A stretch of 64,000 nucleotides of DNA from sequence record ON862890.1; one strand, given 5' to 3'. Position 1 is the first letter of the stretch, and each line of letters starts with the position of its first letter. The position numbers and the translations under genes are program-made. The notes beneath the pieces were generated by a model. It did no database searches. It worked only from the letters and a program-made list of their open reading frames with translations, and was not told where the DNA came from. Positions 1,586 to 55,473 of this stretch are shown in pieces. The stretch comes from Escherichia phage A221.

Positions 1586-1602
1586 ATTTAAGTTCAGAAA
1601 CT

Positions 1603-1630
1603 GTTCAATAGATGAAGGGGTTGCTATAAT
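1603..1630 (+). promoter_or_regulatory. promoter candidate GTTCAAT-N15-TATAAT
   Basis: Box 1603-1609, -10 TATAAT 1625-1630, 30 nt before ATG 1661; motif recurs elsewhere in window. Confidence 0.35.
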
Positions 1631-1660
1631 AGCAGCTCCTTTTGTTTATCGGAGCAGTTT

Positions 1661-2320
1661 ATGTCCTACTCCCTGAAGGGGCTGATGAAGCGCCCCGTCC
1701 ACACATTCTTTAAACCACCCGTCGTAAAGGGGATCTACCCAGCACGAGGGCAAATCTACTACGTCAAAGGCTCCAATGGTAGCGGTAAATCCACTGTGCC
1801 GTCTCAGCTGGCGGAGAGGGATCCTCAGGCGTATGTCGTGACCCATAACGGCAAGGTAATGCTGACTGTCTGTCCTTCGTTCAACGTGGTCTGTATCGGT
1901 AAATATGACAAGTCGAAGTCCAAGGGGGTTGATTCCCTGAAGGACACTGAGCAGATGTTGTTCGCGTTGTCTATTGCTGACCAACCAGAATACTTGAAAT
2001 ATGATGTGATTTTCGAAGGTATCATTCCATCAACATTATTGAGTTCTTGGATCCCCCGCCTGACACGCCCACCACGTGAATTGGTTGTGCTCTTTATGGA
2101 CACTCCCCTTGAAACGTGTATCTCCCGCGTTAAATCACGTAACGGTGGTGTGGACTTCAATGAAGGTCTGGTGGTCGAGAAGTGGGAGAGAGTTCATGAC
2201 CATCGTCAACGACATAAAGACTTGTTCCCTACGGTAGCTGCGGGTATGATGAAGTCTCACGGCCTAACGGTAGACCAGGCTGTGATGGCATTCCTCTGTC
2301 GTGATTTTGGGAGTATCTGA
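1661..2320 (+). CDS. P-loop nucleotide kinase (candidate modified-dNMP kinase)
   Basis: Walker A GSNGSGKST; GGAG RBS; stop overlaps start of downstream TS-family gene. Confidence 0.55.
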   Translation: MSYSLKGLMKRPVHTFFKPPVVKGIYPARGQIYYVKGSNGSGKSTVPSQLAERDPQAYVVTHNGKVMLTVCPSFNVVCIGKYDKSKSKGVDSLKDTEQMLFALSIADQPEYLKYDVIFEGIIPSTLLSSWIPRLTRPPRELVVLFMDTPLETCISRVKSRNGGVDFNEGLVVEKWERVHDHRQRHKDLFPTVAAGMMKSHGLTVDQAVMAFLCRDFGSI

Positions 2321-3366
2321 TGGAAATCAAAGCAATTAACAACAATGACATGCTGAAGCAGGCTGTCTTGGCTATCCGTGAATTCGGGATCGAATCTGAT
2401 CCTGGTAATGCTGAAATAAATACTGATAGCACCCGCTTCCTTGATGGCGTGACCATAACCGTCGCCGACATCCGTGACCGCTGGCTATCCGTTGAAGGTC
2501 GTAACTCATCGGCTATCGCTGCCATCGGCGAGACCTTCTGGGTTCTGTCCGGGCGCGATGACGTTCGCTTCCTGTCCCGCGTGTTGCCCCGCGCCGCCAA
2601 CTTTTCCGACAACGGCCACACATGGCGAGCCGCTTATGGTCCGCGTCTGTACGCCCATGGCCAGCTGGATAGCGTTATCAACCGCCTGCGCAAGAACCCA
2701 AACACTCGCCAGGCGTACCTCACCATCTATGACCCGGCTCTAGATTCGGATGCTGGTCTGGCGAAGTTCAGCGAGAGCGGCGAAGCGAAGACCAAGGACA
2801 TGGTGTGTAACTTGGCTCTGTTGTTCGCCATCGTTGAAGGTCGTCTGAACCTGACGGTCATCAATCGCTCACAGGATGTTCTTTGGGGGATGAGTTCAAT
2901 TAACTTCATTGAGTTCTCTATTCTTCAGGAAGTGATTGCTCGGGTGCTGGATGTTGATGTCGGTCAGTACAAGCTATTCTCTAATAATCTTCATTACTAC
3001 AACAATGAAGTCAGCCAGAAGCAGCTGGGCAAGATCACGAAGGACACCAAAGTAGAAGCTGGGTTCATCAACTCCATGATTCACTTCACGAACGTGACCA
3101 ACCAGAACCATATCCGCAATCTGTTCACTGGTGTGCTTCATCACTGTGATATCGGCAGCCCGTGGGAAACTGTGGTCGCCCACCTGAAGGAATATGATGC
3201 TGATCGTGGCCTGATTGTACAGATGGCGTACTGTCTGCACTGCAAACTGAACGAAAAGCTCATTAACCTGGACCTGATTCAGGATCATGGCTTGAACATC
3301 GCGCTCACCCATTCCCCGGTTGACCGCAAGATCGTTGATCCTAAGTTCCTGGAAGGTGTAGTATGA
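2320..3366 (+). CDS. thymidylate synthase-family pyrimidine hydroxymethylase-like enzyme (T4 gp42-like)
   Basis: TS-fold motifs: NTRQAYLTIYDP, catalytic Cys in DMVCN, NRSQDVLWG (compare T4 dCMP-HMase RSNDVVFG), NNLHYYNN; 348 aa, longer than ThyA. Confidence 0.65.
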   Translation: MEIKAINNNDMLKQAVLAIREFGIESDPGNAEINTDSTRFLDGVTITVADIRDRWLSVEGRNSSAIAAIGETFWVLSGRDDVRFLSRVLPRAANFSDNGHTWRAAYGPRLYAHGQLDSVINRLRKNPNTRQAYLTIYDPALDSDAGLAKFSESGEAKTKDMVCNLALLFAIVEGRLNLTVINRSQDVLWGMSSINFIEFSILQEVIARVLDVDVGQYKLFSNNLHYYNNEVSQKQLGKITKDTKVEAGFINSMIHFTNVTNQNHIRNLFTGVLHHCDIGSPWETVVAHLKEYDADRGLIVQMAYCLHCKLNEKLINLDLIQDHGLNIALTHSPVDRKIVDPKFLEGVV

Positions 3367-3932
3367 TGTACCCAAATCTTGAATTCTTTACGGGGCGCAA
3401 ACGCTCCGGTAAGGACTTCTGTTTGGAGTCCCTCATCAGCTATCACCAACTACAGGGTGATATGGACATACAGCGCCTTTCTTTCTCTGATGAACTGCGC
3501 CGTGTAGCCAACTACATCTACCCATGGCTCCCAGCGGAGGTAGAGGATGCCGTGAAGGACGTTCCTTACGTGCACCCTGATAACCCCAAGGGCTTAACTC
3601 CACGGCAGATCTGGCTTCATCTAGGCAGCGATACGGGCTTGCGTTACGTACAACCCGATCTGTTCCTGGCATTCTTCAAGCGCTTCCAGCTTCCTCTGGT
3701 AGAGCAGAACCCCCACGTCCATTATATCGTGAGCGATCTGCGTACCCCTCAGGAATATGAATGGGCGCTGAGTACGAAATGTCCTATCACCCGTATTTCA
3801 AAGGCCGACCGTGCTGGTATCATAGAGGATGATATAGAGGCTTTCATTGACCAAATGAAAGTGGACTACGAATTCCTCAATCCATTTGATGGTTGGGAAC
3901 CGTTCGTTAAATTCTACGGAGAACGTAAATGA
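3363..3932 (+). CDS. deoxynucleoside monophosphate kinase (T4 gp1 family)
   Basis: TGRKRSGKDF P-loop and YIVSDLRTPQEYEWA match T4 gp1 SGVKRSGKD / YIVPDTRQDHE; ATGA overlap with upstream gene. Confidence 0.7.
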   Translation: MMYPNLEFFTGRKRSGKDFCLESLISYHQLQGDMDIQRLSFSDELRRVANYIYPWLPAEVEDAVKDVPYVHPDNPKGLTPRQIWLHLGSDTGLRYVQPDLFLAFFKRFQLPLVEQNPHVHYIVSDLRTPQEYEWALSTKCPITRISKADRAGIIEDDIEAFIDQMKVDYEFLNPFDGWEPFVKFYGERK

Positions 3933-4483
3933 TCACAGCAGGGCATATCAAAAGCCTGCTCGAACTCCAAAAGGCCACCAACGTGGCCTACTTTGGGGAA
4001 GAGTGGAAGAATGTATGGAGTCAGAACGCAGTCATCAACTCTATCTATCGTGAGTGGGCAGAGTTCCTTGATGAAACCACCCGTGACTGGAAGGTCTATG
4101 GCAACGACATCGGGTTTGACCATACGAACGCAGTTTATGAACTGGTGGACGTGGTACACTTCATGTTGTGCTTCATCCTTGTGGACCGCACCAAAGGTGA
4201 GATCGAAGAAGAATTTGAAGTCCTTAGTAATCGCGAATTCACCCCATCTGCTTTGGGTGTTGTAGGGCATCGCAATGTTACGTACCGCCTTGGGCAATTC
4301 ATGAACGATCCTTGCGTTGAGACTCTCATGTTCTTCCTGTCGTCTGCGTGTTCTTATATGGAGATCGACATTGAGACTTACATACTGGCACACAAACGCA
4401 AGAACGATCGCAATCGCCTGCGTGCTGCTGGTGGCGCGGATTACGATAAGTCCGCAGAAACCCCTCTGACCCTGGAGTTCTAA
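3929..4483 (+). CDS. MazG-like dNTP pyrophosphohydrolase (T4 gp56 dCTPase-type role)
   Basis: ELVDVVHFMLCF motif like T4 gp56 ELVDIFHFVLNMF; coupled to flanking genes by overlapping stop/start. Confidence 0.5.
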   Translation: MITAGHIKSLLELQKATNVAYFGEEWKNVWSQNAVINSIYREWAEFLDETTRDWKVYGNDIGFDHTNAVYELVDVVHFMLCFILVDRTKGEIEEEFEVLSNREFTPSALGVVGHRNVTYRLGQFMNDPCVETLMFFLSSACSYMEIDIETYILAHKRKNDRNRLRAAGGADYDKSAETPLTLEF

Positions 4484-5025
4484 TGTTTACAGTCGTCGTT
4501 TCATATCATGCAGACAACGCGGCGAACGCATCCGCTAATTTCGCCGAGCACATCATCGGCGGCGGTCATAATGTATTCCTTACTGAATACACCAGGCCTG
4601 TTAAACCAGGCGACGGTCTTTCGGCGACTGTTACGCATAAGATCGCCAGCGAGCAACCAGAGTCTCTGTTCAGGATGATCGAAGAGTATGCCGGTGGTGG
4701 CATCAAGATACCAGATGAACTGGTAGACGTCTATTTTGAAGGCTCGATCTATTACATCCACGCTATGCCAAAGGATGTAACCATTGAACAGATGATGTAT
4801 ATCCTGAATATAGCACTGAACACTGCGTGCATCAACCGCACGAACTACAACAATCTGCGCAATATGTACCTAACCGACCGGCATAATGACGCATCGTCAC
4901 TTGTTGAGACAATGTCCCTGAAGAGCATCCAAGAGGCGGTTAACATTTTGTCCCAGAAGGTTATGGGTGTAGAATTATTAACGACGATCAACAATAAAGA
5001 GGAAGTGAAATGGCCAGTTCATTAA
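4483..5025 (+). CDS. hypothetical protein in nucleotide-modification operon
   Basis: 180 codons, TAATG overlap with upstream gene; occupies position taken by beta-glucosyltransferase in T4; no motif recognised. Confidence 0.5.
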   Translation: MFTVVVSYHADNAANASANFAEHIIGGGHNVFLTEYTRPVKPGDGLSATVTHKIASEQPESLFRMIEEYAGGGIKIPDELVDVYFEGSIYYIHAMPKDVTIEQMMYILNIALNTACINRTNYNNLRNMYLTDRHNDASSLVETMSLKSIQEAVNILSQKVMGVELLTTINNKEEVKWPVH

Positions 5026-6095
5026 TGGACCGCATGCTGAAGGTTGCTAAGAAACACGATGACCAGGCTTCAGTGCTGTCCAAATCCGACGCTCTGGAAC
5101 CGTCTATCATCTGTTCTACTGGTATTCCCCTGATCGATATCGCATGGTCTGGGCGTATTGACGGCGGTCTGATCTCCGGTATCAAGATGATGGTGGGTGA
5201 TTCCCGTACCTTCAAAACGATGTTCGGTCTGGTAGACGTCAAGGCGTACATGGACAAGTTCCCTGATGCTATCTGCGTCTTTGCGGACTCAGAAAAGGGT
5301 GCCAACGCCGATTACTGGACCTCTATGGGCATTGACATGGACCGCGTCCTGTACGTACCGATCGACAACGTTGAACAGACCAAGATCCGCTTGCTGCAGA
5401 TCCTACAGGAAGTCAAGAAAGGTGACCATGTTATAATCTTCATCGACTCTATCAGCCAACTTCCCTCCACCAAGGAAGTTGAAGATGCGATCAAAGGGAA
5501 CGACACTCAAGACATGACCCGCGCCCGTGCCCTTAACAGCTTCTGGCGTGTCATGACTCCCGAAATCAACAGCAAAAATCTCGTGTGTGTTTGGATCAAC
5601 TCCTATTACGATGAGATCGGCAACCAATATGCCGAGCCTAACATCAAAGGCGGCAAACAGGGCTTCTTATCCTCCAACTTGATCTGGTTTATCACCCGTT
5701 CTCAGGTGAAGGAAGACAAAGATCTGCTGGGTTGGAACTTCAACATAAGCATCATGAAAGGTCGCCATGTCAAAGAGAAAGCCAAGCTCCCTGTGACGGT
5801 ACTGTACAACGGTGGTATTGATCGCTGGAGCGGCCTGCTTGAGATCGCTCGTGCTCTGGGTTATGTTGATATGCCGTCTTCCGGTTGGTATGTGCGTACA
5901 GCCAAGGGTGGTTTCGATCCTGAGAAGGAAAAGAAATATCAGAAGCGTCAGATGGATGATGATTTCTGGTATCCGCTGCTGGAGAATGTCAACTTCGCCG
6001 ATGACGTGAAGAAAATGTTCGGTGTTTCTAACGGTACTGTTATGCCTGCTAACATGCTGGAGCAAATGGACCATGTTATCAACACAAGCGAATAA
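5010..6095 (+). CDS. uvsX: UvsX RecA-like recombinase
   Basis: Alignable by eye to T4 UvsX over most of length (VIIFIDSISQL, DMTRARALNSFWRVMTP, KGRHVKEKAKL). Confidence 0.9.
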   Translation: MASSLMDRMLKVAKKHDDQASVLSKSDALEPSIICSTGIPLIDIAWSGRIDGGLISGIKMMVGDSRTFKTMFGLVDVKAYMDKFPDAICVFADSEKGANADYWTSMGIDMDRVLYVPIDNVEQTKIRLLQILQEVKKGDHVIIFIDSISQLPSTKEVEDAIKGNDTQDMTRARALNSFWRVMTPEINSKNLVCVWINSYYDEIGNQYAEPNIKGGKQGFLSSNLIWFITRSQVKEDKDLLGWNFNISIMKGRHVKEKAKLPVTVLYNGGIDRWSGLLEIARALGYVDMPSSGWYVRTAKGGFDPEKEKKYQKRQMDDDFWYPLLENVNFADDVKKMFGVSNGTVMPANMLEQMDHVINTSE

Positions 6096-6402
6096 CAGTG
6101 GAGGGGGAGGAGACTCCCCCAATAACTACACAATCATCGACCCTGGTGCTGATCAGCTGGCGATCATCAAGATCACTTCTGGCAAATTCCGTGGTGTTCA
6201 ATTCCGGTTCGGCAAGGTGGCCATCAACGAAGTGGACTGCGAACCCCGCCTGTCTTTCGTGACTGATATATTGAAGAAACCATTGCGTCTGATGTTTGTG
6301 AATTTGAAAGAAAATGACTTGTTCACTGAGGTGTCAGGGGATATCCTTGTAGACCTCATGCAGCGTAATGCTCAGGAATATAATAAATTTTTGGTGGGGT
6401 AA
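6022..6402 (+). CDS. small protein between uvsX and helicase (start uncertain)
   Basis: ORF overlaps uvsX 3' end and contains the hairpin; occupies T4 gene 40 position; no internal ATG after residue 18. Confidence 0.3.
   Translation: MFLTVLLCLLTCWSKWTMLSTQANNSGGGGDSPNNYTIIDPGADQLAIIKITSGKFRGVQFRFGKVAINEVDCEPRLSFVTDILKKPLRLMFVNLKENDLFTEVSGDILVDLMQRNAQEYNKFLVG
6103..6120 (+). other. GC-rich hairpin with GNRA tetraloop after uvsX stop
   Basis: GGGGGAG-GAGA-CTCCCCC, 7-bp stem, no U-run; possible RNA stability or processing element. Confidence 0.35.
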
Positions 6403-6409
6403 GTGGCCA

Positions 6410-7834
6410 ATGTTACTCGAATCTGTCGTGCTTTCACAGTTGATTTACAATGAAGATTACCAAAGAAAGATCCTGCCGTACCTGAAAGCCGATTATTTTG
6501 ACAACGAAGGCGAAAAGGTCATCTTTGGTCTGATTGACAGTTATACCTCAGAGTACAATGCCCGCCCGTCTGTCGAAGCACTATCTATAATTCTTGAACG
6601 GACAAAGCTGAACGAATATGTGTTTGACCAGGCGGTATCTGCCCTGGAGAACATCAACGACAACACCTTCAATGAAGAGTGGCTGGCGAAGGAAACCGAG
6701 GCTTGGGCGCGACAAAAGGCCGTACACAACGCAATCAAGACCGCCGTTAACATCTACGGTGACGAGAAGCGCAAGGACGAGATGAACAACATCCCGACCA
6801 TGTTGCAGGAAGCCCTGGCTATCCGGTTTGATTCATATCTCGGTCACATCTATTGGGAGATGGCGGCAGAGCAGTATGACCACATGAACTCCAACGAGGC
6901 CAAGATCCCGTTCGCAGTTGAGATATTCAATAAGGCGACACGTGGTGGCGTTGGTAAGAAGACACTGAACATCGTAACAGGTGCGATCAACGCAGGTAAG
7001 ACCACAACGCTGATTGACCTGACCGCAGGGTACTCGGAGCAGGGGCTGAACGTCTTTGTCTTCACCCTTGAAGTGGCCGAGAACGTCTGGCGACACCGTC
7101 TTGATGCCCGTATCATGCGACGCGACTTTGAGTCTTTAGAGAAACTCACAAGGCACGAGTATATTGCAACGATAGAGAAGCTCCGCAGTCGCCAAGATGG
7201 TGCGCCCAAGGGTGATATCGTCATCAAGGAATATCCTTCCGGTACTGGACACACAGGTTTATTCCGCCGCGATATCCTTGAGTACATCCAGGCAACAGGT
7301 CGTGCTCCTGATGTTATCGTTATTGACTATCTTGGCGAAGCTGCTTCCTCGCGCCTGCCTGCCCACCTGATGCAGAACACGAACGTCTATTACACGTCTG
7401 TGGCTCGTGAGTTTCGTGCGCTGGGATTTGAGTTTGATGTCCCTGTATGGACTGGTATGCAGTTCAATCGTGAGAATCAGAATAGCACTGATGGCGGAAT
7501 CAGCGATTTGGCAGATGCTATCGGTATTCCGAAGGTGGCCGACTTCATCATGGCATTCTATGCTCCTGACGAACTGGCGGCGGTCAAGAAAGCCCGAGCC
7601 TCAATACTCAAGAACCGTTATGCCAACAAGCAGAAGCTGAAATCATTCCTGTTTGGTATGGACCAAGACAAACAGATCCTGTTTGACCTGGACTGGAATG
7701 AAGTTAAGAAGGACCTGACTGAGGCTGAGGCCAAATATGTCGAAAACGTACACATCAAACATGACCTCAACAAGTCCGGGGCTGCTGCCAGCGATGAGCA
7801 GAAAGCCCAAACGGTCAATAATTGGAAATTCTAG
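6410..7834 (+). CDS. 41: replicative DNA helicase (T4 gp41, DnaB-like)
   Basis: Start trimmed to MLLESVVLSQLIYNEDY matching T4 gp41 N-terminus; Walker A GAINAGKT; C-terminal KNRYANKQK..NNWKF like gp41. Confidence 0.9.
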   Translation: MLLESVVLSQLIYNEDYQRKILPYLKADYFDNEGEKVIFGLIDSYTSEYNARPSVEALSIILERTKLNEYVFDQAVSALENINDNTFNEEWLAKETEAWARQKAVHNAIKTAVNIYGDEKRKDEMNNIPTMLQEALAIRFDSYLGHIYWEMAAEQYDHMNSNEAKIPFAVEIFNKATRGGVGKKTLNIVTGAINAGKTTTLIDLTAGYSEQGLNVFVFTLEVAENVWRHRLDARIMRRDFESLEKLTRHEYIATIEKLRSRQDGAPKGDIVIKEYPSGTGHTGLFRRDILEYIQATGRAPDVIVIDYLGEAASSRLPAHLMQNTNVYYTSVAREFRALGFEFDVPVWTGMQFNRENQNSTDGGISDLADAIGIPKVADFIMAFYAPDELAAVKKARASILKNRYANKQKLKSFLFGMDQDKQILFDLDWNEVKKDLTEAEAKYVENVHIKHDLNKSGAAASDEQKAQTVNNWKF

Positions 7835-29342: not shown

Positions 29343-30166
29343 TATTATCTCCGTAAAATTTCAACCAGGCGGGATCTTCTTTTGGTATCCAACCTTTCTG
29401 AAATTTAGATATACAAGTTTGAGCTGTGGCCTTAGAACAAACAGAGCTTAACCCGGTTTCTTTCAACATTAAACAATAACGGTTCTTCACTTTGTCTTCA
29501 CCGTTACTATACCACCATTCAAAGAATTCACCAGCCAAGAGCCATTGTCGGGATTTACCCGTCTTTACGACAGTCGGGTGTTCCCCAAGGTTGTATGTTA
29601 TTCATGGGATTGTTCTGGCGCCACATAGCAGAATACCTCTCCCTTTCTTCTGGTCGCCTCATCCGTTCGGTGACTGATTTGGTAAGATTGGCTTTGTGTG
29701 CTTCGGAGTGTGGTATCCCTTTCCTGGATTTTGACAACCTGCGCCTTGATTCGTCATTCCAAGTGTAACCTCTCAAGCTATCCGCACGTTTCTTCTGTAC
29801 TTCTGGGTTCAATGAGTTTTTCTTGGATTGCTTACGACAACGTTCCTTTTGTTCATCAGATGACATCACTTCTTTCATTCTGGTGGAATTATTTCTCCTC
29901 AATTCCCCAAACTCTTTGTTGTTCCTAGACATGTTGTTCATCCCAGTCCATGCCTTCCTGATACCGGGGTTGAGTGGTTTTGTTCTCCAAAGTAGGTGAT
30001 GTACGACATAATGTTCTTCTGGTGTCAACCATACAAGATTAGAGAAGTGGTTAGTGCCACCCAAGCACACAGGGATTATATGGTGGCGTTCTTGATAAAC
30101 GCCATCCATTTTACCTCTCTGTATTGCTCTCTGTATGAGAGCGTCTAAGATGATTTCGTATTTCAT
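29335..30166 (-). pseudogene. HNH homing endonuclease, frameshifted
   Basis: ERHHIIPVCLGGTNHFSNLVWLTPEEHYVVH plus NUMOD-like repeats; paralog's C-terminal region continues in another frame (track ORF 29335-29538 from TTG); shift near 29555-29580. Confidence 0.7.
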
Positions 30167-30744
30167 AAGCCAAATTTGCTACGCCACTTTTCAACCTTGT
30201 GTTCAATAGCGTGCTCCACTTTAATGCGAGTGGCCATCAAAGAGGATCCACGGATCGCCCCTTCCCCACACCCCATGCGCGCAACATGCTTGATTAGGTC
30301 ATTGACAAGATGATCCAATCTGTCTTGACTGCGATAAGGCTGGTTGCACAATCGGATAATCCGGCCATGATAATGATGAATAAGATTCAGATGCTTTTGA
30401 GGATCACGATCAATCAGACGGAACCAGTCTTCTTCCAACAGATTAGAAGAAATATCGTTCACTGTCGCCATGTGGTTGATGACAGAGTCGATCATTTCGG
30501 CCTTGTTCAGAGAGCCGCGCATTTGGACGTCGTCATAATCCATGACGTACAGAAGGTCAATAGCAGAGATAATGACATCAGCAACTTCGCCATTCAACGG
30601 CTCGGAAGATACTATGCCATGAAACACATCAGACAGTTCACAGATCTCTTCACCTAGTTTGTTCAGAACAAACACAGGCGAACGGTCTGGGGTATGAGCA
30701 GTGCAGTCATAAGAAGCGTCGACGATAGTGTGTAGAAATTTCAT
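30163..30744 (-). CDS. hypothetical protein (possible MazG-like fold)
   Basis: EEICELSDVFHG...EVADVIISAIDLLYVM weakly MazG-like. Confidence 0.4.
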   Translation of the reverse strand: MKFLHTIVDASYDCTAHTPDRSPVFVLNKLGEEICELSDVFHGIVSSEPLNGEVADVIISAIDLLYVMDYDDVQMRGSLNKAEMIDSVINHMATVNDISSNLLEEDWFRLIDRDPQKHLNLIHHYHGRIIRLCNQPYRSQDRLDHLVNDLIKHVARMGCGEGAIRGSSLMATRIKVEHAIEHKVEKWRSKFGL

Positions 30745-42965: not shown

Positions 42966-44201
42966 TCAGCGTTTCAAGAGTGCCATGAGGTTGACGCTGC
43001 TGGACTTCGACTTGTCCTCAACCTTACGCACAGGCATCTTCAGGTTCGTATATACTTCGGACGGTTCCCAGCGCGTACCCTTTTGCAGGTGCCAGATATG
43101 CAGAGGAACACCAGTCTCAAAGAACACAGGCATCTTCCACTTCTGGACGCCTGGAACGTGCCCTGCAGGAGCCTTTTCGCACAACAGGGTATCTGGCAGC
43201 CAGAGCGAACGGGCTTCCCAGAGCGCTGCGCAGGAGTATTCAGGCCAGACGCGTTCCATGTAGTCTATCTCATCCCAGGTACGCTCTGCGTCCCACCCGA
43301 TGTAACGAGTATTCTTCAGTCGGAAGAATTTCTTCAGCCAACAAGCACCGGAGGTTTCAAAGTTCAGGCGGTTGATGAACGTCAGGTGCCCGAACTCAGC
43401 CACACAATCCTGGAACGCCTGCTCAAGGTCGGCCTCAAGGATGTCACACTCTTCATCCGTGATAGGGCAACTGTTGATCTTTTTCTTCCCGTGTTTAGTC
43501 ACCCAATCGTCACGGTTGGACAAGAACGCCGCGCCATTACGGTTGGACTCGCTTCCATCACGATCACGCAACATGAAGCCAGGGACGTCAATGGTGTATT
43601 CGTTCCCGAAGACCATGTTCAGGGCTTCCAGGAAGTTCCAGGCGCTCAGGCGACCGAAGTATTTCCAGGACATCGCCGTGTCCCACAGCTGGGTGAATTG
43701 TTCTGTCTTATCGATGCACACCAACATCCCACGGAAAGCGTCATATTGAGTACGGCCAGCCAGCCAGTCAATATAGGACTGAACACACGGAATCATCTTG
43801 GACTTGCGGTAGCGACAGTCGGTATCGAATCGCATGCGATCAAAGTTCAGATTATACCAATCAGAGAAGCGCTGCATCTCTTCCTTAGACTGAGGCGGCA
43901 CAGGGAACTCACTGTAGATCGTCCACGGCCCGACGGCGTTATAGCAACAACCCCACAGGAATGCCATCCAGATCTTGCGCTCGACTTTCTGTTCGAGGCT
44001 GATGCCTTCAGTGACTTCGATCGCATAGTCCATCAGACGCATCTGCTGGTTGTGCTCTTCTGTGTAGGACAGCGCCTCCACCCAAGCCTTGAGCAAGTAC
44101 ATGCGATTCTCAGGCTTGCGATAATCAACAGCCAGGTCAATCGGGTACTTCCATTCAGCCGGAGGCGTATAGCCCGTCGGCATTTTAGATAAATGATGCA
44201 T
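42966..44201 (-). CDS. hypothetical 411-aa protein; candidate DNA base-modification enzyme by context
   Basis: Large soluble protein, Trp/Cys-rich, no motif recognised; same transcription unit as P-loop kinase 44759-45664. Confidence 0.5.
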   Translation of the reverse strand: MHHLSKMPTGYTPPAEWKYPIDLAVDYRKPENRMYLLKAWVEALSYTEEHNQQMRLMDYAIEVTEGISLEQKVERKIWMAFLWGCCYNAVGPWTIYSEFPVPPQSKEEMQRFSDWYNLNFDRMRFDTDCRYRKSKMIPCVQSYIDWLAGRTQYDAFRGMLVCIDKTEQFTQLWDTAMSWKYFGRLSAWNFLEALNMVFGNEYTIDVPGFMLRDRDGSESNRNGAAFLSNRDDWVTKHGKKKINSCPITDEECDILEADLEQAFQDCVAEFGHLTFINRLNFETSGACWLKKFFRLKNTRYIGWDAERTWDEIDYMERVWPEYSCAALWEARSLWLPDTLLCEKAPAGHVPGVQKWKMPVFFETGVPLHIWHLQKGTRWEPSEVYTNLKMPVRKVEDKSKSSSVNLMALLKR

Positions 44202-44564: not shown

Positions 44565-44762
44565 TGGTTCCTTGAATATTTTGTAACCAGCAGCGCCGAT
44601 AGACATCACCGCGCCAATACAGTACATCACAGTCACGTTCAACTTCTCTGAGGTTGTTAAGTCCAGAGGGGTGAAATGATAGGCTAGGGCAGTACACATT
44701 GAAACGGCTGCCATAACCAGACCAATGAACAACAGATAATTAGACAACCGTTTCATGATCAT
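44559..44762 (-). CDS. small membrane protein
   Basis: Two TM helices in 67 codons. Confidence 0.4.
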   Translation of the reverse strand: MIMKRLSNYLLFIGLVMAAVSMCTALAYHFTPLDLTTSEKLNVTVMYCIGAVMSIGAAGYKIFKEPK

Positions 44763-45664
44763 CCCTTCTTCATCAGGTCAAGGAGAGAGCGCGACGCTGC
44801 CTTCGTTGCTTCTGGCTGGGCGCTCGCCTTGGTTTTAGTTTTGGATGCCTTCTGCGGCTTCTCAGGCACTCTGTGCGCCAAAGGATCATCACCGCCGACC
44901 TCACGGGTCATTGGATTGGTTTCACAGTAGGCATAAAAATCTTTGATGTCAAGGTTAACCGCGCCGATATCCATCTGATAAGCGATAGCATCCCCGACAA
45001 CCCAAAGAGGGGCATCAAACGGCATGACTGCCAGTTCGCTACGTGGATCCATTTCCCACTCATTCTGAGAAGGTTTTGTATACTCAACATCCTGCCCACT
45101 GTACACGTCTGCCAAAACGTTCCACCCCAGTGCCAACATTTCGGCCTTCGACTTCTCAAACTCCTTGTAGTAAGATTCGTTGCGCGACCAGCCGGAGTTC
45201 CCTGCTTCTTTACCAGAGCGACCACGGATACGAGCATCGTACTGATAGCGGTCGGGGTACGCAAAGTACAGCAGCGCCAATGATTCAATCGGATAGTTCT
45301 TGAACATCCATTCAGGACGCCATTTGTCCGATAGCATGAGAGGTTCTCCCTCGCACACCAGAGTGTATCCCTGAACCAACCAGCACTTGATTAGATCACG
45401 AGCAATATCGCCTGAGCCTGTAGCAGCATGGATTGCATCCATTGAAGTCCAGGAAGCCAGGCCGGATTTGTTAGACACGGTGTACTGTCCAACGAAGATT
45501 AACTTCAGCTCTCCGAACTTCAAGCCAAACGGGCGAGTCTTGTCACCAACGGTGTAGGTCAGTTCGGTAGGCTCCAGCTTAGTGCGCAGCCATTCGATGA
45601 ACTGGACCACTCTCGTACCCTTACCCACGCCACTTGTTCCCTTCACTACAATTATTTTAGCCAT
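44759..45664 (-). CDS. P-loop kinase (candidate DNA-level 5-hydroxymethyl-pyrimidine kinase)
   Basis: Walker A KGTSGVGKGT; 301 aa with Lys/Ala-rich tail; function inferred from context only. Confidence 0.5.
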   Translation of the reverse strand: MAKIIVVKGTSGVGKGTRVVQFIEWLRTKLEPTELTYTVGDKTRPFGLKFGELKLIFVGQYTVSNKSGLASWTSMDAIHAATGSGDIARDLIKCWLVQGYTLVCEGEPLMLSDKWRPEWMFKNYPIESLALLYFAYPDRYQYDARIRGRSGKEAGNSGWSRNESYYKEFEKSKAEMLALGWNVLADVYSGQDVEYTKPSQNEWEMDPRSELAVMPFDAPLWVVGDAIAYQMDIGAVNLDIKDFYAYCETNPMTREVGGDDPLAHRVPEKPQKASKTKTKASAQPEATKAASRSLLDLMKKG

Positions 45665-46343
45665 TCATTATTCTCCAACCGAGACATGTTTTAGCCCTAC
45701 CTTTCAAGAGATTCGTTATATTACCAGAAGGGAGGCCATATTGAAGTTCCATATCGCATCTTCTTAACTCAACAATGCGATCATCTTTGTGCTGCCATTT
45801 GTAAATCGTTTCATCGCGGCCAGGACCAATGTCTATCAGGCCAAGAGCATGCAACTGTTTCCTTGTCTCACCTGCTCGCCTCTGGGCTTCTGAAGGTGGA
45901 GGTAATGGCTTCTTTATCACTCCCTCGGAAATCAGTTTCCTTCTGGTTTCACCACCCTTTCTTTGTGACTCAGCCGATATGCGGGGAGGTGGCTTGATCT
46001 TACCCTCAGCGATCAAACGTTTGCGGGTTGCAGCACTCTTTGCGGATGAATTAGGCGTGGCCAATGGAGGCTTCCCACCCCCGACGACCATGTTGTAGCA
46101 CCACCCAGAGTCAAGGATCTCCTGGCAGACCAGTTCAGACTCTATCTGAAGGATAACCGAATCTTTCCCTCGGAACAGAACTTCAAACTTGAACTGGTCT
46201 TCACCGTATTTCTTGAACGCTCGTTGTAATGCAATGCTCCCCTGACCACACTTATGCTCAGCCAACCGCCTATCCGGTTCTGAGGTGACACCGATATAGA
46301 ATTTATGATTGACGAGATTCGTGATCAGGTAAAGCGACAGCAT
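45657..46343 (-). CDS. GIY-YIG homing endonuclease (free-standing)
   Basis: LYLITNLVNHKFYIGVTSEPDRRLAEHK GIY-YIG motif; repeated Gly/Lys-rich NUMOD-like linkers. Confidence 0.8.
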   Translation of the reverse strand: MLSLYLITNLVNHKFYIGVTSEPDRRLAEHKCGQGSIALQRAFKKYGEDQFKFEVLFRGKDSVILQIESELVCQEILDSGWCYNMVVGGGKPPLATPNSSAKSAATRKRLIAEGKIKPPPRISAESQRKGGETRRKLISEGVIKKPLPPPSEAQRRAGETRKQLHALGLIDIGPGRDETIYKWQHKDDRIVELRRCDMELQYGLPSGNITNLLKGRAKTCLGWRIMNG

Positions 46344-46657: not shown

Positions 46658-47437
46658 CTATCGGACGTATTGATAATGACTAATCAGGCGGTTAACCACT
46701 TCAACAATATTGTAATTCAGGAAGTCGAAGTGATTCTGGCCTTCTACTGGTTTAATATAAAGCATGTCTTCCGAATTCGAAAGATCCAGTTTTTCATAAT
46801 TGCCCTGAGGAACAAAGATGACAAAGATGTTGTTCAGGCCGCACGGCTCGACATACTTCGGATTGTCATCAATCAGGACATCGCCAGCCAGCAGATGCTT
46901 TTCGTCGGTGCTGACAAATCCGTTGAAGATACCAGGGAACTTGTCGTAGACAAACTGGCGCTTGCTGCGCTCGTGTTCCGGCTCACACTTGGACACTGCG
47001 ATGAATTCAACATTGTCGAAATCTTCGAGCAAGATATCCTTCAGATTTACCAGGAACTCGTAAGCGCCGGGGAGCGGGTTCATCTTGGCGTACAAGTCAG
47101 GGCGACGCCACCAGTCCATAGGATCGTTACCGCTTGGCACACGTTGTTTGTGCATCCCCAATTGGACTTCATGGTATAGCCACGCCGGATGCGCACGTTC
47201 ACGCATCAGAATAGCCAGGTCGCCAGCATGGGACATATAACACTCTTTGGTAATCGGCTGGAACTGGTATGACTTATGTTCCCCCGTAGCGATAGCAGCG
47301 GCGGCGATGTTCTCTTCGTTAAACCACTGCACCCAAGGGGAGAGGCTGTCGACCAACGTCAGGTCAACATCCACGAGGACGCGATACAGGCCACCGACCT
47401 TTGATTTCATATCATAGATACAAACCAGGTTGTTCAT
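46658..47437 (-). CDS. HAD-family 5'(3')-deoxyribonucleotidase-like phosphatase
   Basis: HAD motif I VLVDVDLTLVD (DxDxT); C-terminal GDVLIDDNP like NT5C family. Confidence 0.5.
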   Translation of the reverse strand: MNNLVCIYDMKSKVGGLYRVLVDVDLTLVDSLSPWVQWFNEENIAAAAIATGEHKSYQFQPITKECYMSHAGDLAILMRERAHPAWLYHEVQLGMHKQRVPSGNDPMDWWRRPDLYAKMNPLPGAYEFLVNLKDILLEDFDNVEFIAVSKCEPEHERSKRQFVYDKFPGIFNGFVSTDEKHLLAGDVLIDDNPKYVEPCGLNNIFVIFVPQGNYEKLDLSNSEDMLYIKPVEGQNHFDFLNYNIVEVVNRLISHYQYVR

Positions 47438-49419: not shown

Positions 49420-49884
49420 CGCTTATGTTCAGGGATGCTCGCTATTTCATCCCCCGTGTTCGTCATTCAGTTTACCGAACACTGCTGTATGTCACCATAC
49501 AGGCCAGACTATATCACAATCTCCAGAACTGTCTAGAGATTCTCTCCATTTCGAGGCGCTTGCCCCTACTCTACTCGCTTCAGATCAGACGCTTAGTCGT
49601 CGGTCTTGCTTTCGATAGTCGTTGAACCTTGTCACCCACTACTTCAAGGAAATCATCTGGGTTTAACCCAGCGTAACCAAAGAGTCGTTTGAAGTTTCTT
49701 GCCAACTTGCCCCACTCATTCTGGCAAACATTTCCTTCATGACCTTACTCCTTCACCGAGGTTACAGAGTATTTAGATCTTCGTGGCCGACCTTGGCTGC
49801 TGATTATCTCTAAAGAGACTTCCCAGCAATTAAGAGAGTTATTCGATGGTTGTCGCCAACCAAAGCCCCTATGCTGCTAACTTA
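49420..49884 (-). ncRNA. group I self-splicing intron (no ORF) in DNA polymerase gene
   Basis: On minus strand: P-like AATTGCTGGGAAG, Q-like AATCAGCAGCC, R-like GGTTCAACGACTA, S-like GATATAGTC (P7 GACTA/TAGTC); exon 1 ends in U, intron ends in G; splice restores DLNSLYPHII. Confidence 0.75.
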
Positions 49885-51302
49885 AGGGAGTTCAAATCTT
49901 CCGAGAAGACCCAGAAGTAGATTCCTGGTGTCACATCCATGACGTATGCACCCTCAAAGTCGGTCGGACCATCGTATACACGCTGGATCTTAGGCACTAT
50001 CCCCTTCTCGTACAGGCGATAGTAGCACATGGCCAGCCACGGAGCCACAGTGCCCAGACCGTCTTCATAGTTGGACTTGGTGCGGTAGGCCAGGACGAAC
50101 ATCAGTTGGAGCAGGCGCAGCTTCTGTTCAAGTCGCCATACCAGCTTAACGTCTTTGATACCATATCGGGTGTGTTTGCAGTAGTCGTTGAAGTACAGAT
50201 CAAAGAGCGACTTGCTCTCACTGTAGTCCATCTTCTTCTCACCCAGCTCACAATACGCAATCCAGTCAAGAGAGTAGCGTTCACGGGTGGTGTACGTGTG
50301 TTTCTTGTAGATCTGCATATAATCGAGCATAGGGCAACCCACGAACTGATACGTCGTGATATCGCCCTTCTTATCGCGAATGATACGCTTCTTAATGATA
50401 CCCCAAGGACTGAGGCGCGACGTTTCAGCCTCACCCAGAACCTGATTCATGCGCTCAACAAGATACGGGCTATCGAACGTTTCAATGTTCCAGCCTGTCC
50501 AGCCATCAAACTGACGCTGTGACCAGAAGTCTAGGAACGAGCGCAGCAGATCTTGTTCGGTGGTGAACTCCTGATAAACAACCTCAAGGCCGCCGATCTC
50601 TTTGTCTTCGGTGTCGTATGCGAATTTGTTACGATCTTTGGCACAGGGCATACCCCAGACCATGAACTTATTGGTCGCCATATCCTGAAGCTGGATCAGG
50701 GTAATGGGGAACGCCGCATTCATGTCTTGGGTGATCTTGCCGTTGCTGTCAATGATAGGGAACTGATCAGTGACGTTGTTGCTGATGAAAGAACCAGGGA
50801 AGTGCTCACGGACAAATTCATGGTTGGCCAGCACTTGTTTATGGAAGCGGCGAATGCGCGCCTCATTCCCTTTGAACGTCTGCTGCTCAATGGTTGGGTG
50901 AGGGAATGGACCTTTGGTCATCTTTCCGTCTTTCCACCCGGCGGAGAACACTTCGATATCGAGGTTAGCAATATGGATGTTGGAATAATCCGGCTCAATC
51001 TTTCCAGGAAAGCTATGGGCGATGAACTGGTATGCATAATCGGTCTGTCCGTAAATGGCAGCACCCTGGACTTCCTTGTACTCTTCAAGATAGTTGTCAG
51101 CGTCACGCATGGAAGGGAACTGCTTGGCTACCAGGGGTTCATTGAGAAGACCGACCTTTTCAACATTTGAATAGTCAGCCGTGGGTAAATAGAGAGTGGG
51201 TTCGAATTTCTTTTTCAACAGACGGCGATTACCCATGTCATCTGCAATTCGAATCAACAGGTCATTGCCCCTTCGGGCAACGTTCGTATAGAAAACGGTC
51301 AT
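49885..51302 (-). CDS. 43: DNA polymerase (family B) exon 1
   Basis: N-terminus aligns to T4 gp43 (MTVFYTNV..); Exo I ANLDIEV, Exo II WNIETFDSPY; ends in motif A DLNSL. Confidence 0.85.
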
Positions 51303-54198: not shown

Positions 54199-55473
54199 TC
54201 AGGAAGGGGTGAAGTCGTTTACAGGAACTGTTTCAGGGATAGCCAGCTCAGGGCATGCTGCCTTCATCGGCTCTATGTATGGCTTGCTACCCACAATCCA
54301 GAACAGAGTGTTCTCATTGAGCACCTCTGGCTTGTTCTGCTGGATCCAGGTCATGACCTTGCCTTCATAGCGAGGATGCAATTCGATATCACCCCACTGA
54401 TATTCCATCAGGTCATTGTAACGAACCCAATTAGTGGTGTGAAGATCCCAATGGTGTACCTCAAAGCGAGGAAGCACGACCTCTGGCTCTTCCTTCTGCC
54501 TGATACCACTTAGGAGGCCAGCCAGAGAAACGCTCTTAGAGGCATGCTGAAGCTCCTTCTTGCCGTGTACATAGTCTGGGTTGTCGTGATAGCGACGGGT
54601 GAAGTCGACAATGTGCGGTAGATTGGCATGTTTGCCGATGATACGCAGACGGCTCTCAATGAAGCCCAGGCGGTTCGGACCGATGCCAATCAGATACACA
54701 CGCTTCAGATTAGGCTTCGGATGCATTGCCAGCCCGGTCAGAATGCTTGTGCAAGAGTTGCACGATCCGGCTGGGATAATCAGATCGGTAATATGGTCAG
54801 GGATGTTGGCAACCTGCTCGCCACCCAGCATATGGAAGCCAGCGATGCGCTCAGGAGAATGCGCTGTATGGTCGAGGGTGATACCATATTCCAGATAATA
54901 CGCCTTTGGATTCTGTTGTTCGATCAACTTCTTACAGCGCGGCTGGATCGTGCTGTTGTAACCCGAGCCGACGAAGTTGAACTCACTACCAAACCAGGCT
55001 GACATTGCCACCATGTCGTGGTTCATACAGGTGGTGGGTTTGGTCGCTCCGAGTACAGTGGTTGTCTTGCCGCCGAAGTGCCGAGAGACTGCCGTCGCCA
55101 TAGGGGACTGCGGACTACCAACGACAGTACCATGGATGATGTCAGGGGAGCCTCCGGTCTTCAGGTGCTCAACCATCAACCAGATGGCCTGGCGCAACTT
55201 ACTGCCATTGATGCCCTGCTTGCCATTCATATAACAAGATAGCGGCGCGAAGTAATCTTCACGCTTGAACCAGACCTGCTGGTTAGTTTCGGGGTTGGCG
55301 ACGAGTTCACACGGAGTGTGTTTGTAGAGGTAGTCTTCCCAGTGAATATGTTCACGATGAAGAGAGAGGACATCAAAAATCGTTTTGTATGGACCTTTCC
55401 CTAACGTGTGGAACGGGATATACGTGCGGAACGGGATATATGGAGCGAGGGGTTGTGCAGCGAATTTGTTCAT
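54199..55473 (-). CDS. PLP-dependent enzyme, tryptophan-synthase-beta-like fold (candidate modification enzyme)
   Basis: GINGSKLRQAIWLM resembles fold-type-II PLP Lys motif; later Gly/Ser-rich loop IPAGSCNSCTS; AGGAGA RBS. Confidence 0.45.
   Translation of the reverse strand: MNKFAAQPLAPYIPFRTYIPFHTLGKGPYKTIFDVLSLHREHIHWEDYLYKHTPCELVANPETNQQVWFKREDYFAPLSCYMNGKQGINGSKLRQAIWLMVEHLKTGGSPDIIHGTVVGSPQSPMATAVSRHFGGKTTTVLGATKPTTCMNHDMVAMSAWFGSEFNFVGSGYNSTIQPRCKKLIEQQNPKAYYLEYGITLDHTAHSPERIAGFHMLGGEQVANIPDHITDLIIPAGSCNSCTSILTGLAMHPKPNLKRVYLIGIGPNRLGFIESRLRIIGKHANLPHIVDFTRRYHDNPDYVHGKKELQHASKSVSLAGLLSGIRQKEEPEVVLPRFEVHHWDLHTTNWVRYNDLMEYQWGDIELHPRYEGKVMTWIQQNKPEVLNENTLFWIVGSKPYIEPMKAACPELAIPETVPVNDFTPS

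Follow-up and report, generated by a model that had tools for sequence, protein, structure and literature searches.

The genes that lie immediately upstream of uvsX in an Agtrevirus-type member of the Ackermannviridae, 98% identical to Escherichia phage PC3, raise the question of which base they serve and whether its modification is completed by their own products. In the stretch of 64,000 nucleotides that was analysed (the window), five such genes most probably (about 90%) form the first module of the ViI-type pathway of thymidine hypermodification in the Ackermannviridae, with 5-(2-aminoethoxy)methyl-dU (5-NeOmdU) as the predicted product. The original prediction, that these genes follow the logic of phages in which a canonical pyrimidine is replaced, was borne out by the presence of the PF18748, HMUD2 and ADDT families together with the gene order of ViI. 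The system is real but not new, as it has already been published (PMC5889632, PMC8989533, PMC6336734) and has dedicated Pfam families.

The five open reading frames (Table 1) are, as proposed, chained by four stop/start overlaps: TGATG (2318-2322) between ORF1 and ORF2, ATGA (3363-3366) between ORF2 and ORF3, ATGA (3929-3932) between ORF3 and ORF4, and TAATG (4481-4485) between ORF4 and ORF5, with a GGAG-type Shine-Dalgarno inside the upstream gene ahead of each overlapping start. Five linked genes were thus correctly recognised, but the chain reaches beyond 5025: ORF5 overlaps uvsX by 16 nt, uvsX overlaps the 109-aa ORF, and this ORF abuts or overlaps the helicase gene, giving a chain of eight linked genes that runs on to 7834. 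UvsX is linked to ORF5 by the overlap and is outside the modification chemistry. In the homologous 17 kb of ViI, 13 of the 27 co-directional junctions overlap, and because overlaps are usual in this type of phage, four in a row represent ordinary compaction. The same overlaps are kept in ViI, and the first is missing from Dickeya phage Ds25CZ. We infer that the genes of the cluster are translationally coupled.

Table 1. Features of the modification cluster and of related genes in the window.
Feature	Coordinates	Strand	Assignment or evidence
Hairpin	1614-1642	+	Terminator-like, 13 pairs + T-tract; 5' boundary of cluster
ORF1, 219 aa	1661-2320	+	5-hmdU DNA kinase (by orthology)
ORF2, 348 aa	2320-3366	+	TS-superfamily enzyme
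ORF3, 189 aa	3363-3932	+	dNMP kinase (predicted)
ORF4, 184 aa	3929-4483	+	All-alpha NTP pyrophosphatase
ORF5, 180 aa	4483-5025	+	ACT-like protein
uvsX	5010-6095	+	Pfam RecA and T4_UVSX_C; phrog_97
109-aa ORF	6073-6402		Between uvsX and helicase
Candidate second, MazG-like NTP pyrophosphatase	30163-30744	-	phrog_1247, 5.2e-35
Predicted amino acid:DNA transferase, aGPT-Pplase clade 2	42966-44201	-	ViI gp247 orthologue; ADDT PF18724, 7.3e-60
Second 5-hmdU DNA kinase, HMUD2 type (by orthology)	44759-45664	-	ViI gp243 orthologue; PF18747, 2e-150
Candidate deoxypyrimidine 5'-nucleotidase-like protein	46658-47437	-	ViI gp239 orthologue; Pfam NT5C, 9.9e-9; phrog_2643, 6e-5
Predicted PLP-dependent decarboxylase	54199-55473	-	ViI gp226 orthologue, 90.1% identity

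The hairpin 5' of ORF1 has a predicted RNA fold of -31.9 kcal/mol (z = -7.4) and is kept across six genera, with double-sided changes in 5 of 17 pairs. A consensus scan revealed an extended -10-like motif, TGCTATAAT (1622-1630), embedded within it, and a longer fold (1586-1665) pairs both the Shine-Dalgarno and the AUG of ORF1. The hairpin may act as a promoter, a terminator or a translational gate. It is conceivable, though unlikely, that together with the embedded -10 box it combines all three functions upstream of ORF1, an arrangement for which the T4 lysozyme gene offers a parallel.

ORF1 matched Pfam PF18748 (HMUDK_HMUD1) over its full length (1.1e-108) and is 87.7% identical to ViI gp67 (YP_004327432), for which kinase activity on 5-hmdU DNA has been demonstrated (PMC8989533). 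It had been read as an extra P-loop nucleotide kinase, but its membership of a DNA-kinase family and its orthology to an assayed enzyme indicate that it is instead a 5-HMUDK of the HMUD1 type, which would convert 5-hmdU in DNA to 5-PmdU. The second kinase is 81.9% identical to ViI gp243; no paralogue corresponding to gp160 was found in the 64-kb window, and it is probably located elsewhere in the genome.

The identity of ORF2 was less obvious. Pfam Thymidylat_synt matched residues 67-235 only (1.4e-15), and against the NCBIfam ThyA models the best score was 56.6 bits, missing every cut-off (327 and above). Its AF2 model (pLDDT 94.6) gave MilA as the best fold match in Foldseek (5jnh_A; 342 columns, TMt 0.81), including the C-terminal five-helix domain, whereas ThyA structures aligned over only about 240-270 columns, and a sequence-profile search likewise put MilA first among solved structures (1.5e-51). 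ORF2 lacks both the C-terminal segment with which TS closes its active site and the W80/W83 positions, and has the MilA-type helical domain instead. The suspicion that it is not an ordinary ThyA was therefore justified by scores far below the ThyA cut-offs and by the full-length match to MilA. The suggestion that its RSQDVLWG block pointed to T4 gp42 was not, as all of the superfamily shares an RSxDV block and MilA is nearest in both sequence and fold.

Mapping of the active site identified C163, E71, R183, D186, H225 and Y227, together with N195 for uracil and S184/R130 for deoxyribose. Asn195 aligned with TS N177, T4 D179 and MilA D186 and occurred without exception in the 49 family members, and its spacing to H225 (30 residues) is the same in TS and MilA. 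The one-residue ambiguity previously noticed in GMSSINF is real, but it does not make the choice between dUMP and dCMP undecidable: Asn195 is the equivalent of TS Asn177, and the substrate is therefore predicted to be dUMP and not dCMP. A dCMP hydroxymethylase of the T4 gp42 type was rejected because Asn195 stands where T4 carries Asp179. So too was a CMP hydroxymethylase of the MilA type, with which the C-terminal domain is shared: MilA, the CMP 5-hydroxymethylase of mildiomycin biosynthesis (PDB 5JNH/5B6D), has Asp186 for cytosine and Lys133'/Ala176 for ribose, whereas ORF2 carries Asn195 and Arg130/Ser184. Within the family the Arg/Ser and Lys/Ala pairs covaried perfectly (41 versus 8 members), and the MilA paper predicts such a pair for preference between deoxyribose and ribose. 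Thus, the prediction for ORF2, which is 75.7% identical to ViI 'thyA', is a dUMP hydroxymethylase with MilA architecture. In the literature found, the ViI-type TS homologue is called a dUMP hydroxymethylase by association and not from an assay, and a sequence does not strictly tell a hydroxymethylase from a methylase.

It had also been proposed that the TS-fold enzyme has a dNMP kinase and a MazG/gp56-type NTPase beside it, and this was confirmed by matches of ORF3 to phrog_139 (1.2e-47) and of ORF4 to Pfam dUTPase_2 (PF08761; 6.4e-9, 36.7 bits against a gathering score of 22.9). The T4 affinities ascribed to these proteins survived only at the motif or superfamily level. The P-loop of ORF3, GRKRSGKD, resembles GVKRSGKD of T4 gp1 (BLASTP E = 0.003), and the two have a weak motif in common (IVSDLR/IVPDTR); the score against Pfam DNMK (PF21448) was 12.4 bits, below the gathering score of 27.1, and the Vibrio K364 orthologue reached 3e-4 against the same model. 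ORF3 is 90.5% identical to ViI dnk and is predicted to be a dNMP kinase, a remote relative of T4 gp1, that converts 5-hmdUMP to 5-hmdUDP. ORF4 also matched phrog_173 (3e-40), and its best PDB match was the C. jejuni dUTPase 1w2y, to which the intact metal-ligand motifs E42xxE45 and E71xxD74 could be aligned; with T4 gp56, only a 17-residue ELVDxxHF helix aligned, so wider gp56 homology was not upheld. We predict that ORF4, a member of the dimeric dUTPase family, is a dUTPase and possibly a dTTPase too, feeding dUMP to ORF2.

The enzymes that would act on the DNA were found in the same window, 38-50 kb from the cluster. The transferase shares 89.3% identity with ViI gp247 and keeps 10 of 11 cysteines; the decarboxylase keeps K92, the proposed PLP (Schiff-base) lysine, and matched Pfam PALP at 1e-6, below the gathering score. 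Both activities have been demonstrated for the ViI proteins (PMC8989533), and by homology the transferase would put serine on 5-PmdU to give O-serinyl-T, which the decarboxylase would convert to 5-NeOmdU. The nucleotidase-like protein is a possible dTMPase, by analogy with hmU phages (PMC8989533). The MazG-like protein, which had no Pfam match and has a 96% identical relative annotated as MazG-like, is a candidate alternative dTTPase; ViI has a third pyrophosphatase outside the region matching this window.

Taken together, these assignments suggest the following scheme. Before replication, dUTP, and possibly dTTP, would be hydrolysed to the monophosphate by ORF4, a hydroxymethyl group would be transferred from methylene-THF onto dUMP by ORF2, and the resulting 5-hmdUMP would be phosphorylated by ORF3, with host NDP kinase completing the synthesis of 5-hmdUTP for use by the phage polymerase instead of dTTP. 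After replication, ORF1 and its paralogue would add a phosphate to the hydroxymethyl group that 5-hmdU carries in DNA, the transferase would exchange this phosphate for serine, joined through its side-chain oxygen, and the PLP enzyme would decarboxylate the product to 5-NeOmdU, which would stand for part of the thymidines and block many restriction enzymes. The kinase, transferase and decarboxylase functions are inferred by orthology from assayed relatives: the biochemistry of gp67, gp243, gp247 and gp226 and a pathway scheme are available for ViI (PMC8989533), and 5-NeOmdU has been reconstituted in lysates in a study that also lists 5-HMUDK phages including SKML-39 and AG3 (PMC5889632).

ORF5, in the slot where T4 carries beta-glucosyltransferase, had been suspected of being a decorating enzyme. 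This was not borne out: the DNA-decorating enzymes are the distant ones described above, and ORF5 matched Pfam PF24021 (3.5e-79) and has an ACT/ferredoxin-like, not a GT-B, fold. The AF2 model showed a confident beta-alpha-beta-beta-alpha-beta domain (residues 1-95) followed by low-confidence helices, and the best PDB match was the ACT protein 1zpv (E = 3e-3). The family is small, with only 18 clusters in a set of 1.84 billion proteins, and the gene is strictly syntenic between pyrophosphatase and uvsX, even distant members having identical neighbours. Proteins of this kind were confined to the same slot of Ackermannviridae genomes. At best guess, ORF5 binds a small ligand and serves the modification module or UvsX as a regulator or adaptor. 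It is unlikely, if conceivable, that ORF5 is an unrecognised component of the modification itself, either a ligand-sensing factor that sets the modified-thymidine fraction (16-40%) or part of a 5-hmdU to thymidine reversion.

The pathway might be present and yet end in a different base, with 5-hmdU kept, a stop at O-serinyl-T, or another amino acid attached through a different specificity of the Agtrevirus transferase. No chemistry has been reported for the Aglimvirinae, the modification in Limestonevirus PP35 being stated as undetermined (PMC6336734), and no nucleoside analysis of any member was found in the literature. Moreover, the substrates of clade-2 transferases vary (glycine in M6, serine in ViI, putrescine in PhiW-14; PMC8989533), as does the extent of modification, from 16% to about 40%. 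Against this, both the transferase and the decarboxylase stay close to their ViI counterparts, sharing 89-90% identity with gp247 and gp226, and the cysteines and K92 are kept as described above. The lineage is also bracketed by Kuttervirus and Taipeivirus, whose kinases share 88% and 77% identity with that of the window: 5-NeOmdU accounts for about 40% of T in Kuttervirus ViI and CBA120 (PMC11721090), and it is made even by Taipeivirus phiHS2, which is more distant (16.4%; bioRxiv 2026.05.19.726188). We therefore regard another end base as improbable.

A cluster working at the nucleotide level only, with two nucleotide kinases, a TS-fold hydroxymethylase for dUMP or dCMP, a purging NTPase and a 180-aa protein in place of the T4 beta-glucosyltransferase, would fit the synteny with T4 42 - b-gt - uvsX - 40 - 41 and the gp1-like and gp56-like motifs of ORF3 and ORF4, but seems very improbable given a DNA kinase in ORF1, Asn rather than Asp at the base-reading position of ORF2, the fold of ORF5 and the location of the decorating enzymes elsewhere in the window. 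Simple housekeeping without DNA modification (with ORF1 and ORF3 as salvage kinases, ORF2 as a diverged thymidylate synthase and ORF4 as an ordinary dUTPase) agrees with the 'thymidylate synthase' and 'dUTP diphosphatase' of public records and with the uracil-reading Asn and full set of TS catalytic residues in ORF2, but has next to no likelihood in view of the 57 bits against ThyA equivalog cut-offs of 327 and above, the MilA domain in place of the TS C-terminus and W80/W83, the complete post-replicative 5-hmdU-modifying enzyme set in the same window, and the 5-NeOmdU in the DNA of relatives.

The favoured reading, a ViI-type thymidine hypermodification module, sets this locus among several known systems. 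Comparison of gene order confirmed the synteny claimed with T4, in that a hydroxymethylase precedes uvsX, a small ORF and the helicase, although the 109-aa ORF has no similarity to T4 gp40. As in T4, a pyrimidine would be hydroxymethylated and then decorated on the DNA; however, the base is predicted to be uracil here (Asn195) and is cytosine in T4 (Asp179), and decoration would rely on a DNA kinase, an amino-acid transferase and a decarboxylase instead of glucosylation. The hmU phages (Bacillus SPO1, SP8, phi-e and SP10; Delftia PhiW-14) use a dUMP hydroxymethylase, a dNMP kinase, a dTTPase/dUTPase and a dTMPase (PMC8989533). The window has candidates for each of these enzymes and would make the same swap of dTTP for 5-hmdUTP, but its TS homologue has MilA architecture, with a C-terminal helical domain of roughly 110 aa, and the final base is predicted to be 5-NeOmdU, with only partial substitution. 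The cluster is kept as far as Vibrio phage K364. The closest counterpart is Salmonella phage ViI (Vi01), whose 5-NeOmdU pathway was described by Lee et al. (PNAS 2018; NAR 2021/22). Its orf00067-orf00062 (gp67 5-HMUDK, 'thyA', 'dnk', 'dUTPase' and orf62) present the same genes, order, stop/start overlaps and upstream hairpin, and the second module (gp226, gp243 and gp247) is shared too. Identity is 55-90% for the five genes, of which ORF4 (61%) and ORF5 (55%) are the most diverged, and 82-90% for the second module, and the Agtrevirus lineage differs from ViI in that a GIY-YIG homing endonuclease is inserted beside the second kinase and the polymerase gene nearby contains a group I intron.

The five open reading frames, ORF1 to ORF5, that had been proposed to form a coupled operon for modified-pyrimidine synthesis were all found at the proposed positions, and the window sequence confirmed the overlaps at their junctions (TGATG, ATGA, ATGA and TAATG). 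Each start is preceded by a GGAG-like Shine-Dalgarno sequence lying within the upstream gene. Translational coupling of the five genes is plausible from the sequence. The linked chain is longer than five genes, as ORF5 overlaps uvsX by 16 nt and uvsX overlaps a 109-aa ORF that runs into the helicase gene, which ends at 7834. The ORF1-ORF5 overlaps are also present in Salmonella phage ViI, and the first is missing in Dickeya phage Ds25CZ. Overlapping genes are ordinary for phages of this type, 13 of the 27 co-directional junctions in the homologous region of ViI being overlapped.

The TS-fold protein, ORF2, does not model as an ordinary ThyA. Its Pfam thymidylate synthase domain covers only residues 67-235, and it scored 57 bits against the ThyA equivalogs, for which the cut-offs are at least 327. 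A profile of the 49-member ORF2 family matched MilA, the CMP 5-hydroxymethylase of mildiomycin biosynthesis, at 1.5e-51, compared to about 1e-26 for any ThyA. Structure prediction (AlphaFold, pLDDT 94.6) likewise gave MilA as the closest relative (TMt 0.81). Because the match to MilA extends over 342 columns, whereas ThyA structures align with the model over about 240-270, the 'extra' 100 residues of ORF2 are the C-terminal helical domain described for MilA (PMC5175136).

Whether ORF2 uses dUMP or dCMP could not be decided by eye in the original prediction because of a one-residue ambiguity near the specificity residue. The ambiguity is real, but the insertion is N-terminal of Asn195 and the base can be resolved from sequence. 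In a MAFFT alignment (T4 gp42 from the T4 record; E. coli ThyA as a guide only, with its numbered catalytic residues in agreement), Asn195 shares a column with E. coli Asn177, T4 Asp179 and MilA Asp186. The 30-residue spacing from Asn195 to His225 is also that of TS (177 to 207) and MilA (186 to 216), and Asn195 is invariant in the family (49/49). According to the MilA study, this position is Asp in cytosine users and Asn in uracil users, and Lys133'/Ala176 in ribose users are replaced by Arg/Ser in deoxyribose users (PMC5175136). The two sugar positions covary perfectly in the family (Arg/Ser in 41, Lys/Ala in 8), with ORF2 and every phage member in the Arg/Ser group. Asn195 and the Arg/Ser pair together give ORF2 what reads as a dUMP signature. 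From the MilA-like architecture, the co-occurring 5-hmdU-specific enzymes and the DNA chemistry of relatives, we infer that ORF2 hydroxymethylates rather than methylates its substrate.

The eight Lys/Ala members, classed as bacterial, combine this ribose-type pair with the uracil-type Asn. Two have bacterial source names (Paenarthrobacter, P0042, and Rhizobium rhizogenes, P0060). The one neighbourhood examined, that of P0042 (L013, 8001-9086, on the Paenarthrobacter chromosome), adjoins a MilB-type N-glycosidase gene, two genes of the ATP-grasp type and a gene for an MFS transporter. For the eight, UMP hydroxymethylase activity is predicted, within a cluster resembling those for nucleoside natural products.

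ORF1 had been taken for an extra nucleotide kinase. It matched the Pfam family HMUDK_HMUD1 ('5-hmdU DNA kinase') over its full length (1.1e-108) and is the orthologue of ViI gp67 (YP_004327432); comparison with the PDB gave generic P-loop matches only. Since gp67, gp243 and their homologues transfer the phosphate of ATP onto 5-hmdU within DNA (Lee et al., PMC8989533), family and orthology identify ORF1 as a DNA-level kinase. Members of this family are labelled 'terminase small subunit' in RefSeq and in phrog_800, and 'baseplate hub' in some records (the misannotated records include NC_015296, NC_013693 and NC_019910). The terminase label is a propagated misannotation; the genuine small terminase of ViI is Vi01_162c.

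For ORF3 and ORF4 the proposed enzyme classes held, but the kinship with T4 proteins proved remote. PHROG assigned ORF3 as a dNMP kinase (1.2e-47), although it scored below the Pfam DNMK threshold. Its likeness to T4 gp1 is at the motif level only (BLASTP; P-loop GRKRSGKD versus GVKRSGKD, and a weak IVSDLR/IVPDTR match), and phmmer gave no match to the solved gp1 structure. ORF4, proposed as a MazG/gp56-type NTPase, is a pyrophosphatase of the dimeric dUTPase family: it exceeds the Pfam dUTPase_2 threshold, the best match among solved structures is C. jejuni dimeric dUTPase, and its ExxE and ExxD metal ligands are intact. With T4 gp56 it has a single helix motif in common. Two further nucleotide-pool genes were found. 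A MazG-like protein is an alternative candidate for a dTTPase, and an NT5C-domain protein, encoded between the polymerase and second kinase genes, may by analogy supply the dTMPase activity described for hmU phages. After the MazG-like gene comes an ORF for an HNH-type endonuclease. The ViI MazG-like protein gp161 has no counterpart in the 64-kb window.

ORF5 occupies the position of the T4 glucosyltransferase gene, b-gt, and had been suggested as its analogue. This was ruled out by an ACT-like fold and the absence of any glycosyltransferase match. ORF5 belongs to Pfam ACT_phage (3.5e-79), and in its model an N-terminal beta-alpha-beta-beta-alpha-beta domain is predicted with confidence, whereas the helices after it are of low confidence; the best PDB match, with a weak E-value, was a stand-alone ACT protein. 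A fold search matched distant Ackermannviridae proteins (phiMAM1, Kuja), but hhalign gave no match between ORF5 and the protein that Vibrio phage K364 encodes at this position. Among 1.84 billion representatives the family accounts for only 18 clusters, and its most distant members also lie between the pyrophosphatase gene and uvsX. ORF5 is the one uncharacterised gene of the module, and it is strictly syntenic.

The post-replicative enzymes were located by tblastn with ViI proteins and by Pfam (see table); gp160 had no counterpart in the 64-kb window. Following the published scheme (PMC8989533), ORF2 would convert dUMP to 5-hmdUMP, ORF3 would make the diphosphate and host NDP kinase the triphosphate for incorporation into DNA. 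There, ORF1 and the HMUD2 kinase would convert 5-hmdU to 5-PmdU, from which the transferase would form O-serinyl-T and the decarboxylase 5-NeOmdU. Measurements put this base at about 40% of T in ViI and CBA120 (PMC11721090) and at 16.4% in Taipeivirus phiHS2 (bioRxiv 2026.05.19.726188). CBA120 has also served for in vivo tests (PMC8989533).

Features of the window
Feature	Coordinates	Strand	Assignment
Boundary hairpin	1614-1642		13 pairs and T-tract
Intergenic fold	1586-1665	+	80 nt
ORF1	1661-2320	+	5-hmdU DNA kinase
ORF2	2320-3366	+	TS-fold
ORF3	3363-3932	+	dNMP kinase
ORF4	3929-4483	+	pyrophosphatase
ORF5	4483-5025	+	ACT-like
109-aa ORF	6073-6402		
HNH-type endonuclease ORF	29555-30166	-	
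MazG-like NTP pyrophosphatase	30163-30744	-	phrog_1247 at 5e-35; no Pfam match
Serine:DNA transferase	42966-44201	-	ADDT at 7e-60; 89% identical to gp247
Second kinase	44759-45664	-	HMUD2 at 2e-150; 82% identical to gp243
GIY-YIG homing endonuclease	45657-46343	-	228 aa
NT5C deoxypyrimidine 5'-nucleotidase domain protein	46658-47437	-	ViI gp239 orthologue
DNA polymerase ORFs	51302-49869, 49466-47838		
Group I intron	49485-49894	-	Rfam RF00028, 63.6 bits (gathering score 50), E = 1.2e-15
PLP decarboxylase	54199-55473	-	90% identical to gp226; Lys92 conserved

Two insertions distinguish this region from that of ViI. A homing endonuclease gene lies between the DUF7254 and HMUD2 kinase genes, which abut each other in ViI, and a group I intron splits the DNA polymerase gene, which is uninterrupted in ViI.

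The hairpin that separates ORF1 from the 278-aa gene upstream is kept in six genera, some of the changes in it being double-sided. In the intergenic fold (-31.9 kcal/mol, z = -7.4), the Shine-Dalgarno sequence and AUG of ORF1 are paired as well. Within the hairpin GCTATAAT is kept in enterobacterial lineages, and its apical part contains TGCTATAAT, which we ourselves read as a possible extended -10-like motif. A sigma-70 promoter scan found sites no commoner than in shuffled sequence and called none in 1586-1660, and no significant recurrence of the 13-mer was seen in the rest of the window. The hairpin may serve as terminator, promoter and translational gate in one. The transcriptome literature yielded no useful data on this element or on the proposed 'early' timing.

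The base-replacement logic of the original prediction was right, the cluster being that of ViI-type thymidine hypermodification, although several specifics were wrong. The feature is real and the system already known: work on ViI (2018-2022) established the pathway, and dedicated Pfam families exist for the enzymes, so the discovery value is small. Lee et al. (2018) listed SKML-39 and AG3 and mapped the surroundings of the kinase gene (PMC5889632), the same six genes were named in the Limestonevirus PP35 (PMC6336734), and a Taipeivirus study likewise annotates them (bioRxiv 2026.05.19.726188). What is gained is the flagging of the terminase misannotation, the base and sugar specificity of ORF2 as read from sequence, its MilA architecture and the singling out of ORF5. 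This Agtrevirus-type phage is predicted to carry 5-NeOmdU, which if present would bear on resistance to restriction, BREX and CRISPR, on sequencing and on use in phage therapy.

Identity of the region is 98.3% with Escherichia phages PC3 and PH4, 96-97% with AV101 and vB_CECAV_050 (both classified as Agtrevirus) and about 92% with Ag3 and SKML-39; for over 200 further Ackermannviridae phages it is 80-90%. The gene order is that of ViI: orf00067 (87.7% amino acid identity), thyA (75.7%), dnk (90.5%), dUTPase (61.3%), orf00062 (55.0%), uvsX (70.0%), orf00060 and the gp41 helicase gene. It is also kept in metagenomic contigs and in the distant Vibrio phage K364 (kinase about 45% identical). In K364 (L012, 1-6000) the 6 kb preceding the kinase/TS-fold cluster hold both modification modules, with ADDT, HMUDK_hel and a 'guanylate kinase' that is HMUD2-like; the pathway genes are consolidated there, whereas in enterobacterial Ackermannviridae they are scattered. 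The proposed parallel with T4 (42 - b-gt - segA - uvsX - 40 - 41) is genuine as synteny, with no similarity between the 109-aa ORF after uvsX and T4 gp40. T4 has the arrangement in common with the window, but its chemistry is different.
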